A stretch of DNA of 64,000 bases from a bacterium (GTDB taxonomy: Bacteria; UBA8248): contig OZ242260.1 in NCBI GenBank assembly GCA_965207065.1, positions 4,128,001-4,192,000 of the forward strand, in the 5' to 3' direction. Every line of letters begins with the position of its first letter. The stretch's first letter is position 1. The notes beneath the pieces were generated by a model, which searched no databases, was not told the DNA's origin, and saw only the letters and a list, made by a program, of their open reading frames with translations. Position numbers and translations under genes: made by a program. This document shows, in pieces, positions 45,664 through 55,380 of the stretch.

Positions 45664-46446
45664 TTGTTGGTCGTGGGAATGTTTGGATTTTTAGAGAATT
45701 TCCTGCTCTATCATCCCTACCGGGAAATCGAGGTCACGCCCAAAACCTATCGAATCGCGTATGAGGACGTCTCCTTCAACGCAGAAGACGGCGTGCGCCT
45801 GCACGGCTGGTACGTCGCGCCCAAAGACCCGGACGGTCCGGTGCTCCTGTGGACGCACGGCAACGCGGGCAACCTCTCCCACCGCGCGGAGAACATCGCG
45901 CTCATCCAGAAAGAACTGGGAGCGGGCGTCTTTATCTTCGACTACAGAGGATACGGGCAAAGCGAGGGACGACCGAGCGAGGAGGGCTTATACGCAGACG
46001 GCAGAGCCGCGTACGCGTGGCTCATCGAGCGCGTGCCGCACGAGCGCATCTTCTTGTTCGGGCGCTCCCTGGGCGCGGCCGTGGTGGTGAAGCTCGCCGT
46101 GGAAGGAAAGAAAGCGCGCGGCCTGATTCTCGAGAGCCCCTTCGAGAGCACCCTCGCCATGGGCAAGAAGATGTTCCCCTTCCTGCCGGTGGGGTGGCTC
46201 ATCTCCGCAAAATTCGACAGCGCGGCCATGATACCCAAAGTGAAGACCCCCCTATTCGTCCTGCATGGGGATAAGGACGGAATCGTCCCCTACGCGCAGG
46301 GGCTACGGCTCTTCGAGGCGGCGGGCTCAAAACACAAGCGGTTTTTCACCATCAAGGGAGCGGGCCACAACGACACGTATTACACCGGGGGCGCGCCCTA
46401 CTGGGCGGCGTGGCGGGAATTTCTGGGAAATCCCGAGTCAAGGTGA
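45664..46446 (+). CDS. Alpha/beta hydrolase (ABHD13-like)
   Basis: HGNAGN, DYRGYGQS, GRSLG, HGDKD and GAGHND motifs; true start may be a few codons upstream. Confidence 0.85.
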   Translation: MLVVGMFGFLENFLLYHPYREIEVTPKTYRIAYEDVSFNAEDGVRLHGWYVAPKDPDGPVLLWTHGNAGNLSHRAENIALIQKELGAGVFIFDYRGYGQSEGRPSEEGLYADGRAAYAWLIERVPHERIFLFGRSLGAAVVVKLAVEGKKARGLILESPFESTLAMGKKMFPFLPVGWLISAKFDSAAMIPKVKTPLFVLHGDKDGIVPYAQGLRLFEAAGSKHKRFFTIKGAGHNDTYYTGGAPYWAAWREFLGNPESR

Positions 46447-47244
46447 ATCGGGAGTCGGACCCGTCTTCCTGGCCCTGCGCCTCGATCGAAACTCCTGCAG
46501 CAGCCTTTCATGATGCACGCTCGTGAAGAAATTCTCGACGAACGAGTTCACCGGATGGTTGATGAGGTTCTCCGGCGTATCGACCTGGACGATCACGCCA
46601 TCACGCATCACGGCGATTCGGTCGGCGATCTGAAACGCATCCGTCAAATCGTGCGTCACCAGCAGGCTGATCGCCCCGATCTCGTCGTGCACACGTCTCA
46701 ATTCTTTTCTGACCTCGAGCCTCGCGACCGGATCGATGTTCGCCAGAGGCTCATCGAGAAGAAAAACCTGCGGGGGGATGGCGATGGCGCGGCCGATGGC
46801 GACTTTTTGCTGCTGGCCCGCGCTCAGGCTGTCCGGACTGCGGCGGGACCATTTTTTGCTGATCCCCAAACGCCGCATCACGTCCTGGGCGCGCTCGTTC
46901 AGGATGCCCGGCAACCAGCGGCGGATTTTGAGCGCGAAGCTCAGGTTCGAGTATTTCTTCTCGTCAAAAACCTTCATGTGCGGCCAGAGGGCGTAGCTCT
47001 GGAACACGAGCTGCACCCCGCGCCTTCCGGGCGGGATGCCGTTCAGCCGAACGCCATCGAGGTAGATATGGCCCGCATCTTCATCCTCCACGCCGGCGAT
47101 GAGGCGTAAGAGCGTCGATTTCCCGCAGCCCGTGGGACCGACGAGCACCATGAACTCCCTGTCCTCGAGCGCCAGGGAAAGGTTGTCGACCGCGCACACG
47201 TCGTCGAAATCTTTCTTGAGTCCCGTAACAGTCAGACGGCTCAT
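46438..47244 (-). CDS. ABC transporter ATP-binding protein (MalK/PotA-like)
   Basis: Walker A GPTGCGKS, signature LSAGQQQ, LLDEP, VTHD. Confidence 0.9.
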   Translation of the reverse strand: MSRLTVTGLKKDFDDVCAVDNLSLALEDREFMVLVGPTGCGKSTLLRLIAGVEDEDAGHIYLDGVRLNGIPPGRRGVQLVFQSYALWPHMKVFDEKKYSNLSFALKIRRWLPGILNERAQDVMRRLGISKKWSRRSPDSLSAGQQQKVAIGRAIAIPPQVFLLDEPLANIDPVARLEVRKELRRVHDEIGAISLLVTHDLTDAFQIADRIAVMRDGVIVQVDTPENLINHPVNSFVENFFTSVHHERLLQEFRSRRRARKTGPTPDSP

Positions 47245-47261
47245 GCCTCTCTCCGGTTCTT

Positions 47262-47618
47262 TCAGTCCTTCGGCGCGAGTTCGTTCAGCTTCTCGACGCC
47301 CGGCGTGAAGATTTCCTCCAGCACGAGCGGCCCATCGCCCGCGTTTCGCGTGGAGTGCTCCTGGTTCGGCGGAAAAACCACGACGCCGCCCGGCCCGAGC
47401 TCCACCTCTTTCCCACCGCACGTGAACCTAGCCCGTCCCTCCAGAACGATCGTCATCTGCTCGTTGGGATGCGAATGGGGGTTGTACATGTCCACGCCGG
47501 CGCGAATCGTCTGGCGAAGCACGGTCAGGCGCTCGCCCGCCACCACTCTCTGGATCCGCTCGCCGGTATCGTGCGCTGCCATCTCTTCGAAATGATAGTG
47601 TTTCACGCTCTTCTCCAC
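47262..47618 (-). CDS. Cupin domain protein
   Basis: PHSHPNEQ...FPPNQEH motifs. Confidence 0.85.
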   Translation of the reverse strand: MEKSVKHYHFEEMAAHDTGERIQRVVAGERLTVLRQTIRAGVDMYNPHSHPNEQMTIVLEGRARFTCGGKEVELGPGGVVVFPPNQEHSTRNAGDGPLVLEEIFTPGVEKLNELAPKD

Positions 47619-47752
47619 CTGAATGGATGAAACTTTACGAAAAATTTAAGCTCCGCTGCGGGAACCGCCTGATTCATCGTATAAAAGTATTTGCATCGGC
47701 TCAAACCTTCTCCTAAAGTGTACGAAGGCCGTCTTTTTACGAGGAGACCACC

Positions 47753-48277
47753 ATGAAGCGAACTCTCATATGCATCATCGCCATCGCATTGATCGCCGCG
47801 TTCTGGACCTTTCACCAGGCGGGCGCATCGGGACTCGGACCCGGCGCGCAAGCGCCCGAGCTCAAGGGCGGGCCCTGGATTGGCGGCGAGCCCGTCAAGC
47901 TCGAAGAATTGCGCGGCAAGGTCGTTCTCCTCGACATGTGGACGTTCGCCTGAATCAATTGCGTGCGGGAGATCCCCACGCTGCGTTCGTGGCACGAGCG
48001 CTATGAGGACAAGGGGCTGGTCGTCATCGGGAACCATGCGCCCGAGTTCAACTTCGACAGGAAAAAAGAAAACATCGAAGAGGCAATGGCCAAGCTCGGC
48101 ATCAAGTACCGCGTCGTGATGGACAATGACTTCACGAACTGGAACGCCTTTCAGAATCGCTTCTGGCCGACGAAATACCTGATCGACAAAAAGGGGATCG
48201 TGCGCTTCAAGACGATTGGCGAGGGCAACCACGAGCGCACCGAAGCGATGATCATGAAGCTACTCGCTGAAAAATGA
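47753..48277 (+). CDS. Putative exported thioredoxin-fold (DipZ/TlpA-like) selenoprotein (UINC), Sec67 from TGA 47951-47953
   Basis: Signal peptide, LRGKVVLLDMWTFA-TGA-INCVREIP, GNHAPEF, WPTKYLIDKKG; the two ORF-track fragments are in frame. Confidence 0.9.
47961..47981 (+). promoter_or_regulatory. SECIS-like hairpin
   Basis: GCGTG-C-GGG-AGAT-CCC-CACGC; apical loop about 16 nt after the UGA. Confidence 0.55.
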
Positions 48278-49263
48278 TGGAAACAGAAGAAACGTCGCGA
48301 CCGGAGAGCACGCCCGCCTATCCCTACTCATCTCTCCTGAGAATCACCCACTGGCTGAACGTGCCCCTCCTGCTTCTCATGATGGCGAGCGGGTTCCAGA
48401 TCTGGTGGGCGTATCCCGCATTCGGGCCTGACATGCCCAATCCCGAAGCCATCTACGAGTCGCTTCGGGGGACGGAAACCCAGGCCGACCCGCGCGCCAT
48501 CAACCTGGGCGCCGACTACAGGGTGTTCGTCCAAGGCCTTACGAAAACTTTCGGCATCGGCGGGTGGCTTGCGGGCGCGCTGCGCTGGCACTTCGCACTC
48601 ATGTGGCCCTACACCATCAACGGGTTGATCTTTCTGCTCCTGCTCCTCCTGACGGAAGAAGGGAGGCACTACCGGATCAGGAAGGCCGATTTTTCGGGCG
48701 CCAAGGAAATGCTTCTCCATCCAATCAAGACCTTTCACCATCCCCCGGGAGAGGGGAAATTCAACCCGATCCAAAAACTCGCGTACAACGTCGTCATACT
48801 GGCCGGCGTGCTATCCATCCTGACGGGTCTCGCCATCCTGAAACCTGTACAGCTCGGTTGGCTGACCTGGCTTTTCGGGGGCTACCAGCCGAGCCGGTTC
48901 CTGCATTTTCTGGTCATGCTGTTTCTGGTCGTCTTCATGATCGGTCATTTCCTCATGGTGATATCCCACGGTTGGCGCCGCGGACTCGCGCCCATGATCG
49001 TCGGGATCAAGGCGGAGCGCGACGCCTTTCAGGCCAGACAAAGGCAATTCGCCAAAAAACTCGGGCGCATCGCCGAGGAGGCGGCGATCCTGGTGCTCGC
49101 TTTCTGGCTTGGAGGCCTCGTTGCGGATATGATGAACGCGGCTTTGGGCGGTGAGGCTCATGGATTATGGTTCGGCGCGCCGGGCTACCTCCTGGTACGG
49201 CTCGGCCTCATGCGCGGACGGCGCGTCGGAGACTTCTGGCGCAAGGCGAGGGCGGGAAGCTGA
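48274..49263 (+). CDS. Cytochrome b/b6-domain membrane protein (Ni-hydrogenase/thiosulfate reductase cytochrome b-like)
   Basis: RITHWLN, WHFALMW, KFNPIQKLAY and FLHF...GHF haem-ligand His pattern. Confidence 0.85.
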   Translation: MMETEETSRPESTPAYPYSSLLRITHWLNVPLLLLMMASGFQIWWAYPAFGPDMPNPEAIYESLRGTETQADPRAINLGADYRVFVQGLTKTFGIGGWLAGALRWHFALMWPYTINGLIFLLLLLLTEEGRHYRIRKADFSGAKEMLLHPIKTFHHPPGEGKFNPIQKLAYNVVILAGVLSILTGLAILKPVQLGWLTWLFGGYQPSRFLHFLVMLFLVVFMIGHFLMVISHGWRRGLAPMIVGIKAERDAFQARQRQFAKKLGRIAEEAAILVLAFWLGGLVADMMNAALGGEAHGLWFGAPGYLLVRLGLMRGRRVGDFWRKARAGS

Positions 49264-49547
49264 TGAACACGGAAGAACGAACGGAATTCGTATTGCCGAC
49301 CCAAATGGCGAAGCGCAGACTGTTCGCGGGCAGGCTGGTTTTGAGCGTCGTCTGCATCAACGCCTTTCTGGCCCTGGTCGCCGCATATATCCTGAGCGGG
49401 CCGATGGACTGGGTAACGAGTTTTGAATTCGGCTTTCTGACGTGGGCCTGCATTCTGTACCCTACCTCTCTCGTTCTGGCCGTCCCGATCATCGCCCCCG
49501 TCGTCTTCAAGGTGCTGAAGCCGCCGCCTGAGACGCCCGGAGAGTGA
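49263..49547 (+). CDS. Small two-helix membrane protein
   Basis: ATG overlaps the upstream TGA; two hydrophobic stretches; stop overlaps the next start. Confidence 0.65.
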   Translation: MNTEERTEFVLPTQMAKRRLFAGRLVLSVVCINAFLALVAAYILSGPMDWVTSFEFGFLTWACILYPTSLVLAVPIIAPVVFKVLKPPPETPGE

Positions 49548-50362
49548 AGATGAAAAAAGGCGAAAAGCGGAATGCAAGCCCTGGCGTGGGCAAGTCGACG
49601 TCTTCGCGGCGCGGATTCATGAAAATGCTCCTAGGCCTCGCCTCCGCCTTCATGGCCGGGTGCTCGCGCCTCAATGAGGAGCCCGGCGTGCAGGCCGTGC
49701 TGAGCTGGTTCGACCGTCTGAACCACAAGGTGGGCCTCATGACGGACAGCAACCACCGTCTGGCGCGCACCTATCCCCGGAACGCCGTTCAGCCCGAACA
49801 GATGCGGCCCAACGGCTCGGTGGTCACCCCGAACTCCCAAATCATCGAGACGCCTCCCGAGGAATGGCGGCTCGTCGTGGGCGAAGCCCACCTCAGAGAG
49901 GGCCAGATGATGAAGCGTCACTGGGTCCGGGAATACACGCTGGCGCAGCTTCGCGAAATGCCCGTGCTGGAACAGACGGTGGAGCACATCTGCGTGGAGG
50001 GCTGGAGCGCGATATGCCACTGGCGGGGGGTACACCTCGCGCGCTTCATCGAAATGCACAAGCTCAGACCCGAGAGCCGCTACGTTTTCTTCCTGTGCGA
50101 CGATATGCTCGCCACCGCGAACGGGCACGAGCGCTACAGCGTGACGTTCGATCTCAAGCAAGCGATGCACCCGCAGAACGTCCTCGCGTATGAATACAAC
50201 GGCGAAACGCTGCCCCTGAACCACGGCGCTCCACTTCGCCTCGCCTCGCCCACGAACGTGGGCTGGAAGAGCGCGAAATTCCTCCGCTACGTCTTCTTCA
50301 CGAACGAGGACCTGGGCGGGTTCTGGGAGAAGCAGGGCTACCCGCGCTATTACGGCTTCTGA
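49544..50362 (+). CDS. Molybdopterin-dependent oxidoreductase (sulfite oxidase/MsrP-like), Tat lipoprotein
   Basis: SRRGFMK Tat motif, FMAGC lipobox, HICVEGWS, HGAPLRL, GWKSAK, GGFWEKQGY. Confidence 0.85.
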   Translation: MKMKKGEKRNASPGVGKSTSSRRGFMKMLLGLASAFMAGCSRLNEEPGVQAVLSWFDRLNHKVGLMTDSNHRLARTYPRNAVQPEQMRPNGSVVTPNSQIIETPPEEWRLVVGEAHLREGQMMKRHWVREYTLAQLREMPVLEQTVEHICVEGWSAICHWRGVHLARFIEMHKLRPESRYVFFLCDDMLATANGHERYSVTFDLKQAMHPQNVLAYEYNGETLPLNHGAPLRLASPTNVGWKSAKFLRYVFFTNEDLGGFWEKQGYPRYYGF

Positions 50363-50891: not shown

Positions 50892-51953
50892 ATGACGATC
50901 AAGAAACTAACGACGATCGGATTTATGATCTGTGCGCTGAGCGTCGCGCTCATGGCGTCGGGTGTCGGCGAAGTGGACGCCGCGAAGCGCATACGCTGGA
51001 AAATGGCGAGTTGGTTCCCGAGCAAATTGACCCAGCTCGGCTCGATGGGCAAAGCCATGGTCGACCGTCTGGAGCGGGTTTCCGGCGGCAACATCAAGAT
51101 CAGGTTCTTCGAGCCCAACGCGCTGATCCCGGCCAAGGAGTGCTTCGACGCCGTTGCCAAGGGCTCGGTGGACGCGTGCTGGTCGACGCCCGGCTACTGG
51201 TACGGCAAGGAGCCTGCGCTCGCCATGTTCGCCGCCGTTCCCTTCGGCCCCAGAGCCGGCGAATATATGGGCTGGATTTTCTACGGCGGCGGCTACAAGC
51301 TCTGGGACGAGATTTACAAGAAGCACGGTCTGAAATCGCTGCCCTGCGGCGTCATCGCGCCCGAAGCTTCGGGCTGGTTCCGCAAGGAGATCAAGAGCAT
51401 CGATGACTTGAAGGGTCTCAAGATGCGCTTCTTCGGGCTGGGCGCGAAGGTCATGCAAAAAATCGGCGTTTCCACCCAGCTCATCGCGGGCGGCGACATC
51501 TTCCCGGCGCTCGAGCGCGGCTCCATCGACGCGACGGAATACTCGATGCCCGCGATCGACCTCAACCTCGGCTTCTACCAGGTGGCGAAGCATTACTACT
51601 TCCCCGGCTGGCACCAGCAGTCGACGGTATTTGAATTGCTGCTGAACAGAAAGAAGTGGGATGCGCTCAACGACACCCAGCAGGCGCAGATTGAGGTGTC
51701 GTGCGGCGACGCGTTCCGCCAGGGGCTCGCCGAGGGCGAGGCCATCCAGGGCAAGGCTCTGGTCGAACTCAAGAAGAAGGGCGTGCAGATCCATCGCTGG
51801 CCCCAGTCGATCCTGGACACGCTCGAGAAGAAATGGGCCGAAGTCGCAGCAGCGGACGCCGCGCGCGACGCGACCTTCAAGAAGGTCTGGGAATCCTACA
51901 GCGCGTTCCGCAAGGAATACGCGGTATGGAAGGACCTCGGATACTTGAGGTAA
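50892..51953 (+). CDS. dctP: TRAP transporter substrate-binding protein
   Basis: Signal peptide; GWFRKEI, LKGLKMR, ALERGSIDATE and YFPGWHQ motifs. Confidence 0.9.
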   Translation: MTIKKLTTIGFMICALSVALMASGVGEVDAAKRIRWKMASWFPSKLTQLGSMGKAMVDRLERVSGGNIKIRFFEPNALIPAKECFDAVAKGSVDACWSTPGYWYGKEPALAMFAAVPFGPRAGEYMGWIFYGGGYKLWDEIYKKHGLKSLPCGVIAPEASGWFRKEIKSIDDLKGLKMRFFGLGAKVMQKIGVSTQLIAGGDIFPALERGSIDATEYSMPAIDLNLGFYQVAKHYYFPGWHQQSTVFELLLNRKKWDALNDTQQAQIEVSCGDAFRQGLAEGEAIQGKALVELKKKGVQIHRWPQSILDTLEKKWAEVAAADAARDATFKKVWESYSAFRKEYAVWKDLGYLR

Positions 51954-51998
51954 TACCCGTGTGACGGCGCGCTGCGCCGTCTCGCTTGCAAAACTTAC

Positions 51999-52039
51999 AG
52001 GCGCCGGAACCGTAACGGTCACGGTTCCGGCGCCTTTTT
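51999..52039 (+). terminator. Strong hairpin plus T-tract between dctP and dctQ
   Basis: AGGCGCCGGAACCGT-7nt-ACGGTTCCGGCGCCT followed by TTTT. Confidence 0.7.
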
Positions 52040-52067
52040 CGCGTACGTTGCGCCGGGAAGCCTATTG

Positions 52068-52646
52068 ATGCGGCAACTGTTTCGAATACAAGAGTTTCTC
52101 GCCCGGATCGTGGTCAGCGTCGGGAAGCTCAGCGCCTGGCTCTCGATTCCGCTGATGTTCGTCATCATCTTCGACGTCGTGACCCGGCGCTTCCTGGTGC
52201 TGGGATCGACCAAGCTGCAGGAAGCCGAGTGGCACCTGCACGCGATCCTGTTTTTACTGTGCATCGGCTTCTGCTATATCGAGGACGCCCACGTTCGGAT
52301 CGACCTGCTTCGAGAGCGGCTGAGTTTGCGCGCCAGGGATTGGGTCGAGTTCATCGGCTGCATCATCTTCGTGATCCCCTATTGCCTCATCGTCACCTAT
52401 TTCGCCGAGGACTTCGTCGAGAGGTCCTGGGCGGTCGGCGAGGCCTCGGACTCCGCGACCGGCCTCCCCTATCGTTGGGCGATCAAGGCGGGCCTGCCGA
52501 TCGGGCTGTTCGTCCTGCTCCTCTCGGGGATCACCATTCTGCTGCGCAAGATCATCGAGTTGTTCGGCCCGGCGGACCTCAGAGAACTCATCCCCCGGAA
52601 GGAAGAACGCACGACCGAACAGATCGACCAGATCGGGCCGAACTAG
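52068..52646 (+). CDS. dctQ: TRAP transporter small permease
   Basis: LQEAEWHL and HVRIDL motifs, four TM helices. Confidence 0.9.
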   Translation: MRQLFRIQEFLARIVVSVGKLSAWLSIPLMFVIIFDVVTRRFLVLGSTKLQEAEWHLHAILFLLCIGFCYIEDAHVRIDLLRERLSLRARDWVEFIGCIIFVIPYCLIVTYFAEDFVERSWAVGEASDSATGLPYRWAIKAGLPIGLFVLLLSGITILLRKIIELFGPADLRELIPRKEERTTEQIDQIGPN

Positions 52647-52658
52647 GGACGCCTGCGC

Positions 52659-54023
52659 ATGTTCTATATCGAAGACTACCTGCCGGCCTCCATGTTCATC
52701 ACCCTGGCGATTCTGCTGTTCTCGGGCTTCCCGGTCGGATTCGTTCTCGGCGGCGTGGGCCTCGCCTTCGGCTTCATCGGCATGTATTTCGAGGTTTTCT
52801 CCCAGGTCGAGTTCTTCAACCTCGTGCTCCGCATCTGGGGATTCGCAGACAACCTGGTGCTGGTGGCGATTCCGATGTTCATCTTCATGGGGACGATGCT
52901 GGAACGCTCCGGCGTCGCCGCCAATCTCCTGTACTGCCTCCAGGTGCTGCTGCGGCGCACACCGGGCGGGCTGGCGCTCGCCGTCACGGTCATGGGCACG
53001 ATCCTCGCGGCGACGACCGGCATCATCGGCGCATCAGTGGTGATGATCAGCCTGATGGCGCTGCCGGTCATGGTCGAGCGCGAGTACAACCTGGAGCTCG
53101 CGACAGGCACCATCGCCGCCTCGGGCACGCTCGGGATACTGATACCGCCCAGCATCATGCTGGTCATCATGGCCGATCTTCTCGGGCGTTCGGTGGGAAC
53201 CCTGTTCGTCGCGGCCATCTTCCCCGGCCTGATACTATCGGGGCTTTACTTCATCTATATCTTCACCAGATGCGCTCTGAACCCCGCCCTGGCGCCGCGC
53301 CTGCCCAAGGAGATGGGTCCGCAGACGTCGGGCGAACTGCTCCTCCTATTGCTCAAGGGCCTGGTGCCGGCGGTGTTCCTGATCGTCCTGGTGCTGGGGT
53401 CGATAGTCGCCGGTTGGGCGACGCCCACCGAGGCGGCCGGGGTCGGCGCGGCCGGTGCGACGCTGCTCGCCATCGTCAACCGGCAGCTGACCTGGTCGGT
53501 CCTGAAAGACGTGGTCGAGCGCACCTCACTCACCAACGCGATGCTGTTCTTTATCTTCGTCGGGGCGACCGCCTTCTCCTACGTCTTCCGCTCGCTAGGG
53601 GGCGACGACTTCATCCAGGACGTGATCTATTCCGTGGGGACGAACCCCTGGTGGATCCTGATGATCCTGATGGCGGTGACTTTCATCCTCGGGTTCTTCT
53701 TCGACTGGATCGAGATCACGCTCATCGTGCTACCTGTGTTCGCGCCGATCCTCGCCGAACTGGATTTCGGCGACCACCTGCCCAAGAGCGAGGTCATCTA
53801 CTGGTTCTCGATTCTGATGGCGGTCAACCTGCAGACATCGTTCCTCACGCCGCCGTTCGGCTTCGCCTTATTCTATATGAAGGGAGTCGCCCCGCCCCAG
53901 GTGCGTCTCCAGCAGATTTATCGCGGGATTATCCCCTTCGTACTCCTGCAGCTCATCGGGCTGGGGCTGGTCATCGTCTTCCCCGAAATCGCCATGTGGC
54001 TGCCGAGGGTGCTGCTCGACTAG
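52659..54023 (+). CDS. dctM: TRAP transporter large permease
   Basis: AIPMFIFMG, GTLGILIPPS, ATPTEAA and TSFLTPPFG motifs. Confidence 0.9.
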   Translation: MFYIEDYLPASMFITLAILLFSGFPVGFVLGGVGLAFGFIGMYFEVFSQVEFFNLVLRIWGFADNLVLVAIPMFIFMGTMLERSGVAANLLYCLQVLLRRTPGGLALAVTVMGTILAATTGIIGASVVMISLMALPVMVEREYNLELATGTIAASGTLGILIPPSIMLVIMADLLGRSVGTLFVAAIFPGLILSGLYFIYIFTRCALNPALAPRLPKEMGPQTSGELLLLLLKGLVPAVFLIVLVLGSIVAGWATPTEAAGVGAAGATLLAIVNRQLTWSVLKDVVERTSLTNAMLFFIFVGATAFSYVFRSLGGDDFIQDVIYSVGTNPWWILMILMAVTFILGFFFDWIEITLIVLPVFAPILAELDFGDHLPKSEVIYWFSILMAVNLQTSFLTPPFGFALFYMKGVAPPQVRLQQIYRGIIPFVLLQLIGLGLVIVFPEIAMWLPRVLLD

Positions 54024-55305: not shown

Positions 55306-55380
55306 TCCGGCGTAGCTCAACGGCAGAGCAATCGGCTGTTAACCGATGGGTTGTAGGTTCGAATCCTACCGCCGGAGCCA
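55306..55380 (+). tRNA. tRNA-Asn (GTT)
   Basis: TCCGGCG/CGCCGGA acceptor stem, ATCGG-CTGTTAA-CCGAT anticodon arm, GGTTCGAATCC T-loop, encoded CCA. Confidence 0.95.

Follow-up and report, generated by a model that had tools for sequence, protein, structure and literature searches.

Organisation and conservation of the operon

The window analysed here is a stretch of 64,000 nucleotides (nt) of contig OZ242260.1 (assembly GCA_965207065.1, positions 4,128,001 to 4,192,000), from a bacterium of the GTDB lineage UBA8248. Positions 47753 to 50362 of its forward strand hold four genes that form a real conserved operon in an uncultured family, with separable parts. The first gene very likely encodes a selenoprotein of the thioredoxin fold, the second and fourth a pair of predicted cytochrome b and molybdoenzyme, and the third a small putative membrane protein.

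All four open reading frames (ORFs) were confirmed at the coordinates of the initial annotation, with genes 2, 3 and 4 open and gene 1 containing a single in-frame TGA. Gene 1 (47753..48277, + strand, as are all operon features below; 174 codons) encodes a putatively exported, DipZ-type redoxin (PF00578, PF08534) whose active site would read U-I-N-C (Sec67/Cys70, with Sec, or U, for selenocysteine). It is followed by gene 2 (48274..49263; 329 amino acids, aa), a predicted four-His di-haem cytochrome b of the hydrogenase/FdnI-like b561 class (PF01292), by gene 3 (49263..49547; 94 aa), a predicted two-helix membrane protein restricted to the family, and by gene 4 (49544 or 49550..50362; 272 aa), which would be a lipoprotein exported by twin-arginine translocation (Tat) and a molybdenum (Mo) enzyme of the sulfite-oxidase fold, YedY-like and of group 1B. 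The overlapping stop and start codons that had been described at the three junctions were all found in the sequence (ATGA at 48274-77, TGATG at 49261-65 and GTGA at 49544-47), but the overlap-joined layout holds only in part: it is present here, whereas the overlap of genes 2 and 3 is kept in just 7 of 22 intact relatives (the others having gaps of 1-4 nt), and gene 4 perhaps starts at an alternative ATG at 49550, whose Shine-Dalgarno sequence is better than that of 49544 (-6.6 vs -2.7 kcal/mol). Overlaps of the -4/-1 kind are frequent genome-wide (268 of 975 close ORF pairs, a rough count).

A sigma-70-type promoter is predicted at 47691..47719 (TTGCAT-17 nt-TAAAGT), and the Shine-Dalgarno sequence of gene 1 (AGGAG, 47742..47746) has a duplex energy of -8.9 kcal/mol. 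The TTGCAT hexamer recurs in 10/10 aligned sequences from the genus and, outside it, in several genera; in most of these sequences a TAAAGT-like hexamer follows after 17 nt. The site was not among the matches listed by a consensus promoter scan. The ECF16 (SigF) pattern was found in none of 21 upstream regions.

The order 1-2-3-4 is present in 28 of 36 family relatives, namely 21 of 22 in the genus (one cut by a contig end) and, outside it, seven from other genera, including a broken copy, so that the thioredoxin gene is indeed linked to the cytochrome b/Mo pair within the family, the neighbourhood check that had been proposed for it. The parts are separable, nevertheless. Genes 1 and 3 occur alone in four family relatives (G023, G028, G031, G035), and a fifth, G007, has both intact beside short remnants of genes 2 and 4 (L080:6210-6814). 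In G026, a small-genome relative, gene 3 stands alone opposite the same cupin gene (L269:4403-4666), genes 1, 2 and 4 not being found, and two of the 36 relatives are without genes 1 and 4 by search. At class level, 6 of 7 genomes have the Sec-redoxin; in two of the six, genes 2 and 4 occur as well, so that genes 1, 2 and 4 are spread over three loci. These cases do not support the view that the four genes make up a single new selenium/haem/molybdenum electron-transfer module: five relatives retain genes 1 and 3 without a working pair, a further one has only gene 3, and two class-level genomes have genes 1, 2 and 4 dispersed. Nor does the lack of a conserved redox residue in gene 3 speak for such a module.

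Two further observations belong here. In G033 (L065) genes 1, 2 and 4 have frame breaks and the motif reads U-I-N-Y. At the class-level loci L072, L076 and L078 the neighbouring genes, from their motifs, are presumably an rpiB-glyA-nrdR-like run; after it stands the Mo enzyme in G039 and the Sec-redoxin in G041 and G044, a swap that may point to an older linkage since broken up by differential gene loss.

Gene 1: a putatively exported redoxin with a probable selenocysteine

The TGA of gene 1 (47951..47953, codon 67) gives the context WTFA-U-INC, and hydrophobic residues 5-23 at the N-terminus form a putative signal peptide, both as the initial annotation had it. Against the thioredoxin domain of M. 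tuberculosis DipZ (PDB 2hyx) the protein aligns with an E-value of 2.6e-41, and the TGA falls on the first Cys of CINC. With regard to the Sec or Cys status of this position, which had been named as a check, TGA was found in all 40 gene 1 orthologues recovered from the 61 genomes searched, at identities down to ~51% and with the downstream frame open, an occurrence far above chance expectation. None of 41 redoxin matches from a 301-genome sample (the phylum of an Acetobacteraceae metagenome-assembled genome) carries it.

The genome encodes the machinery for selenocysteine insertion, namely tRNA-Sec (selC), selA, selB and selD, and selA is present in 27/28 family genomes. Just 3′ of the TGA lie two hairpins (47961..48001, comprising 47961-47981 and 47983-48001; z -2.6), candidates for a bacterial selenocysteine insertion sequence (SECIS), SECIS-like in position by the geometry rule for bacterial elements. 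Over 24 distinct sequences 91.4% of the cells are paired, with 15 changes on both sides of a pair, figures that kinship and coding constraint can inflate; none of 500 shuffles equals the observed pairing, and slid controls reach 35-57%. The features of a UxxC selenoprotein therefore occur together, with a conserved TGA on the catalytic Cys, selABCD in the genome and a SECIS-like hairpin directly 3′. Because the TGA is fixed in 40/40 orthologues, the machinery is present and the hairpin covaries, gene 1 is very likely, on this sequence evidence, a selenoprotein. As a side observation, selD itself (G000 C1 542.9-544.5 kb) has an in-frame TGA of its own and is directly followed by a second msrA.

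Genes 2 and 4: a cytochrome b and molybdoenzyme pair

Gene 2 matches PF01292 with an E-value of 8.6e-18, and His26, His106, His211 and His225 are invariant in 14/14 homologues. The haem-b His motifs claimed for it are thus in place, and so are the extra C-terminal helices, a lineage-specific extension of ~80 residues past residue ~250 that is absent from rhizobial homologues and from a 266-aa class-level homologue and that has no usable ESM Atlas match. The predicted structure is of moderate quality (pLDDT 64), its top matches being the cytochrome b of hydrogenase-1, weakly (E 0.025-0.035).

PF00174 is the sole domain of gene 4 (E 9.7e-28). The Tat motif, lipobox and Mo-ligating motif that had been seen in it are borne out by residues invariant in 18/18 aligned homologues: R22-R23, G39-C40 and C150/E152/G153/W154/S155, the codon of the putative Mo ligand Cys150 lying at 49991-49993. 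The best match of its predicted structure (pLDDT 66) is E. coli YedY/MsrP (1xdy/1xdq; E 9e-9), MsrP being the Mo-dependent methionine sulfoxide reductase (Msr). At the sequence level, however, gene 4 is below the cut-off of the MsrP model NF003767 (70.5 vs 207 bits) and far below those of the NCBIfam sulfite dehydrogenase models (SorA/SorT/SoxC; 32-45 vs 420-600 bits). Its identity is 26% to C3567 of uropathogenic Escherichia coli (UPEC; E 8e-29) and 35-38% to rhizobial and Variovorax enzymes, all of which have in common with it the motif CVEGWSAI and a leader with Tat signal and lipobox, and matches to MsrP are partial, at 25-32% identity. BLAST scores run to 97-162 bits for enzymes of the C3567 type vs at most 70 for MsrP. 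A tree of the Mo enzymes, in which an out-of-frame row (G000_2069k) was ignored, sets the MsrP clade apart (100/100), leaves the remainder unresolved as a single clade and places the lineage's gene 4 enzymes on a branch of their own (83/99).

Such family assignments agree with the idea of an MsrPQ-like cytochrome b and Tat molybdoenzyme, presumably active in extracytoplasmic oxo-transfer. More specifically, their sequences place genes 2 and 4 with the known pairs of the 'group 1B' or YedZ1-YedY1 type and not with MsrPQ itself. A review distinguishes this smaller group, with a different cytochrome, by a size of ~30 kDa (PMC7759655), and the operon has its characters: 272 aa with a single Mo domain, a Tat signal, no dimerisation domain and a PF01292 partner upstream. 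A described member of this group is the pair C3566/C3567 of UPEC (PMC8550376, PMC4436054, PMC7759655), which protects the cells from peroxide and shares a transcript with a Met-rich peptide (PMC8550376). Comparable systems have been described from Azospira (YedY1Z1-MrpX) and Brucella (BcrXQP) (PMC4436054, PMC8315932). Of five rhizobial and Variovorax plasmid pairs inspected, two follow an MXKDX peptide rich in Met, together with genes for a sigma factor and for NrsF/DUF1109.

Gene 3: a family-specific membrane protein

Gene 3 has two hydrophobic segments in its 94 aa, consistent with the two transmembrane helices that had been assigned to it, and no match in Pfam or NCBIfam. It is found in 28/28 family genomes and 0/18 others, forms 4 clusters among 1.84 billion proteins, and has only nameless ESM Atlas matches, all <0.9. 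Two Cys are present, neither of them conserved outside the genus, and there is no conserved redox residue; gene 3 is probably not an electron carrier, and a role as a minimal CcdA/DsbD-like carrier acting through two transmembrane Cys was ruled out as the Cys are not conserved. In G020 (L083:5560-6645) genes 3 and 4 share one stop-free frame of 362 aa, through either a genuine gene fusion or the loss of a stop codon.

Redoxin neighbourhoods outside the lineage

That Mo/cytochrome b pairs normally go without a thioredoxin agrees with the outside record. No DipZ-type redoxin stands beside the pair in any of 15 loci outside the lineage, and in the 301-genome sample, where the Mo enzyme occurs in 40 genomes, the redoxin in 38 and the two together in 13, they never share a locus (0/13).

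A different picture emerges for the redoxin. A metagenome scan for the TGA-containing motif gave at least 120 stretches, 80 of which, with flanks, were analysed (40 short ones were not), and all metagenome counts below refer to these matches listed. By motif, and by hand in five cases, the 80 loci divide into 56 of a short exported type, whose identity to gene 1 is mostly 44-57%, and 24 of a Trx-NHL type. No locus of the 80 holds gene 2 or a homologue of gene 3. A canonical msrP lies at most ~2.3 kb downstream of the short Sec-redoxin in 15/56 loci (two of them, L201 and L202, identical; a sixteenth, spotted by eye, was not counted), and in 9/14 of those whose flank is at least 3.5 kb, vs 0/24 Trx-NHL control loci with a downstream msrP or other Mo gene. 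NCBIfam cut-offs were passed by 4/4 MsrP and 2/2 MsrQ proteins tested from these loci, and the msrP-linked redoxins fall into three separate parts of a quick tree displayed without support values. In L178, L185 and L193 the place of msrP, downstream of the redoxin and two-component genes, is taken by a short non-Tat gene of the sulfite-oxidase family.

A window search also found a Met- and charge-rich peptide at most 900 nt upstream of the redoxin in 13/43 loci, as opposed to 0/43 on the opposite strand, 0/21 control loci and 1/1500 random windows; one of four candidates scanned matches TIGR02953 weakly, below its cut-off. Of six plasmid loci read, two have a Cys-type DipZ flanked by msrB and msrA. 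Members of the redoxin family are thus found next to methionine-repair genes with three different chemistries.

The second U-I-N-C type (L146, L149, L153 and 21 others) is an observation of its own: these proteins are mostly ~500 aa without an obvious export signal, the one tested of the 24 has NHL repeats, and from PDB matches they look like bacterial Sec counterparts of human NHLRC2 and plant SOQ1.

A proposed role in envelope repair

From the observed gene content, conservation, family membership and neighbourhood counts we infer the selenocysteine insertion, localisation, electron routes and substrates put forward in what follows. The reading that we favour, and hold to be probable if by no means certain, is that the operon repairs oxidised envelope proteins through two arms that are probably co-expressed but work separately. 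Envelope methionine and cysteine repair is the likely role because the redoxin family stands upstream of msrP and behind Met-rich peptides with controls at zero. In the first arm, electrons from the quinol pool would pass through the di-haem cytochrome b of gene 2 to gene 4, which, exported by Tat and anchored to lipid, would reduce methionine sulfoxide. In the second, cytoplasmic thiols would feed CcdA, encoded elsewhere in the genome, and through it the exported Sec-redoxin, which could reduce oxidised envelope cysteines or recycle thiol enzymes, e.g. an exported MsrA. Both arms would be under the one predicted housekeeping promoter, and gene 3 would be a lineage-specific membrane protein, probably not an electron carrier. 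In support, the source genome encodes both CcdA (its single PF02683 gene, located away from the operon) and an MsrA with a signal peptide, and the arms are separable among relatives.

Several points weigh against this proposal. Group-1B enzymes are termed putative Msr, on genetic evidence only, in the parts seen of the papers on them, and gene 4 is just 26% identical to the studied enzyme, C3567. The operon locus is without a Met-rich peptide, SigF/NrsF or a two-component system, and the promoter looks housekeeping. Most of the short metagenome loci have no Msr neighbour, often through a short flank, and the CcdA-to-redoxin link is proposed by analogy. An orthologue of the exported MsrA was found in just 16 of 22 genus relatives and not in three near-complete genomes with an intact operon (G001, G009, G020), so that the idea of MsrA as the sole client of the redoxin was ruled out. 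The idea that the redoxin is itself an Msr, by analogy with SOQ1, is weakened, as the preprint on SOQ1 assigns its Msr activity to the C-terminal and not the Trx-like domain. Separately, a predicted lipoprotein with a Met/Lys-rich N-terminal stretch is encoded at G000 C1 ~2.2178 Mb (minus strand), possibly an MrpX-like oxidant sink or Msr substrate.

Alternative explanations

Instead of repairing the methionines of proteins, genes 2 and 4 may act on a small-molecule S- or N-oxide or remove some other oxidant, the redoxin being a co-expressed general envelope reductase. According to a review (PMC7759655), E. coli MsrP was first known as a weak reductase of dimethyl sulfoxide and a Campylobacter homologue is active in nitrosative stress. 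The separate branch of the lineage's enzymes (83/99), a separate canonical MsrP in the genome and the lack of a Met-rich peptide at the locus point the same way. Elsewhere, however, both the redoxin family and the group-1B pair occur with msr genes or Met-rich peptides, and gene 4 scores far under the cut-offs of the sulfite dehydrogenase models. Another substrate is unlikely.

A second alternative explains the conserved layout by control of the repair genes through the supply of selenium: in its absence, ribosomes would stop at UGA67 and gene 2 would not be re-initiated. As a mechanism, coupling of gene 2 to UGA read-through is likely, because gene 2 has no ribosome-binding site of its own (a Shine-Dalgarno energy of -0.8 vs -8.9, -8.2 and -6.6 kcal/mol for genes 1, 3 and 4) and its overlap with gene 1 is kept in 27/29 loci, vs a rough genome background of ~27%. 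There is precedent for such selenium-dependent coupling, since in Treponema primitia selenium controls fdhF-Sec transcription through translational coupling (PMC3892789). Because genes 3 and 4 have ribosome-binding sites of their own, gating would plausibly be limited to gene 2. As the reason for the layout it is nonetheless doubtful: gaps of 7 and 10 nt separate genes 1 and 2 in two relatives (G034, G030), and a by-product of this kind is expected in any selenoprotein-headed operon. Nor is the coupling general, because the redoxin and msrP genes of other lineages do not overlap, their gaps being ~30-60 nt or spanning a two-component system.

Less probable still is a single electron chain, in which the Sec-redoxin would be a direct redox partner either of the Mo enzyme, on a route from CcdA via the redoxin to the Mo centre, or of the cytochrome b. 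In its favour, two types of Mo-dependent Msr are linked to the redoxin family in different lineages, the overlap of genes 1 and 2 is kept in 27/29 loci, and the xINC domain of plant SOQ1, a related one, relays electrons to an Msr domain (bioRxiv 10.1101/2024.11.01.621559). Moreover, the source genome has an orphan canonical msrP (L090:5170-6174, G000 C1 ~3.795 Mb; NF003767, 415 bits) with no msrQ beside it, and no PF01794 was found in that genome; this family occurs in 3/28 family genomes and 0/7 class-level genomes. Because canonical msrP is present and no msrQ was found, an unconventional donor to MsrP must exist, and a route from redoxin to Mo centre would explain both the recurrent linkage and msrP without msrQ. 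No conserved partner was found beside the orphan msrP, no other ORF family being common to more than 4/10 loci. G028 has a true msrP-msrQ pair and is without genes 2 and 4.

Against such a chain, four class-level genomes as well as G023, G028, G031, G035 and G007 retain the redoxin in the absence of genes 2 and 4, the orphan msrP occurs in G026, G038 and G043, where a Sec-redoxin was not found, and the group-1B pair is without a redoxin neighbour in 15/15 outside loci and unlinked in 13/13 genomes with both. A quinol-fed haem b is also a poor donor for a dithiol at thioredoxin potential. Equally improbable is the boldest version, that the U-I-N-C redoxin is a third component of Mo-dependent methionine repair, recruited repeatedly beside MsrPQ and YedZ1-YedY1, delivering CcdA electrons straight to the Mo enzymes, with the cytochrome b made selenium-dependent via the UGA.

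That gene 1 is a pseudogene cut off at its TGA has next to no chance of being right, for the TGA is fixed in 40/40 orthologues with an open frame beyond it, and the Sec machinery and covarying hairpin are in place.

Surroundings of the operon

Upstream, the operon is flanked by a divergent cupin gene and an ATP-binding cassette ATPase (46438-47618 of the window) and downstream by a TRAP transporter (DctP; 50892-54023), with a tRNA-Asn at 55306-55380. In the RNA runs compared, 5-12% of sampled sequence words were present.

Novelty and relation to known systems

What is new here is gene 3 and the combination of the four genes, the class of gene 1 having been catalogued and genes 2 and 4 being a studied pair. 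No paper on the operon or on a link between the redoxin and Msr came up in the literature searched; loci of this kind may be treated by Haft and Tolstoy 2025 ('Novel selenoprotein neighborhoods'). The combination would link a widespread exported selenoprotein with the repair of envelope methionines by two distinct molybdoenzyme systems, thus giving the redoxin family a testable function and extending the little-studied, Msr-like group-1B pair to an uncultured lineage. Gene callers would cut the redoxin at its TGA. Direct reduction of the Mo enzyme by the redoxin, if true, would be a thiol/selenol route into a class thought to be fed by haem and quinol alone.

The nearest counterpart of genes 2 and 4 is C3566/C3567 (with C3568) of UPEC strain CFT073, in which a PF01292 gene likewise precedes a ~30 kDa Tat-lipoprotein Mo enzyme with CVEGWSAI. 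YedY1Z1-MrpX of Azospira suillum and BcrXQP of Brucella are counterparts by description, not by sequence comparison. The present operon differs from group 1B systems in its Sec-redoxin head, in gene 3 between the members of the pair and in a cytochrome b ~80 residues longer, and, unlike the SigF/NrsF-MrpX-YedYZ arrangement, its locus has no Met-rich peptide, SigF/NrsF, two-component system or ECF16 promoter.

Canonical MsrPQ (E. coli YedYZ, group 1A) has in common with gene 4 the sulfite-oxidase fold, Tat export and C-V-E at the Mo ligand, is its best structural match and, by analogy, presumably also shares quinol-fed reduction of methionine sulfoxide. Gene 4, in contrast, fails the MsrP model, has a lipobox and is without the C-terminal segment of MsrP, and MsrQ belongs to PF01794 whereas gene 2 belongs to PF01292.

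As for gene 1, thioredoxin-fold selenoproteins with UxxC have been catalogued as 'Prx-like thiol:disulfide oxidoreductase' (PF00578; PMC13188914), and both PF00578 and UxxC are common to them and gene 1. In the portions seen of this review, the text is without DipZ and the operon section without an Msr-linked selenoprotein operon. The xINC thioredoxin domain is shared with DipZ (PDB 2hyx/5cyy; E 2.6e-41), from which gene 1 differs in standing alone, with its own export signal, no fused CcdA-type membrane domain or C-terminal domain, and Sec in place of the attacking Cys. Exported thioredoxins fed by CcdA reportedly serve Msr enzymes in the pneumococcal CcdA-Etrx-MsrAB2 system. DipZ and these CcdA-fed thioredoxins resemble the family of gene 1 in that both are linked to msr genes; the partners of the CcdA-fed proteins are thiol-dependent Msr, whereas the family of gene 1 is linked to Mo-dependent Msr genes instead.

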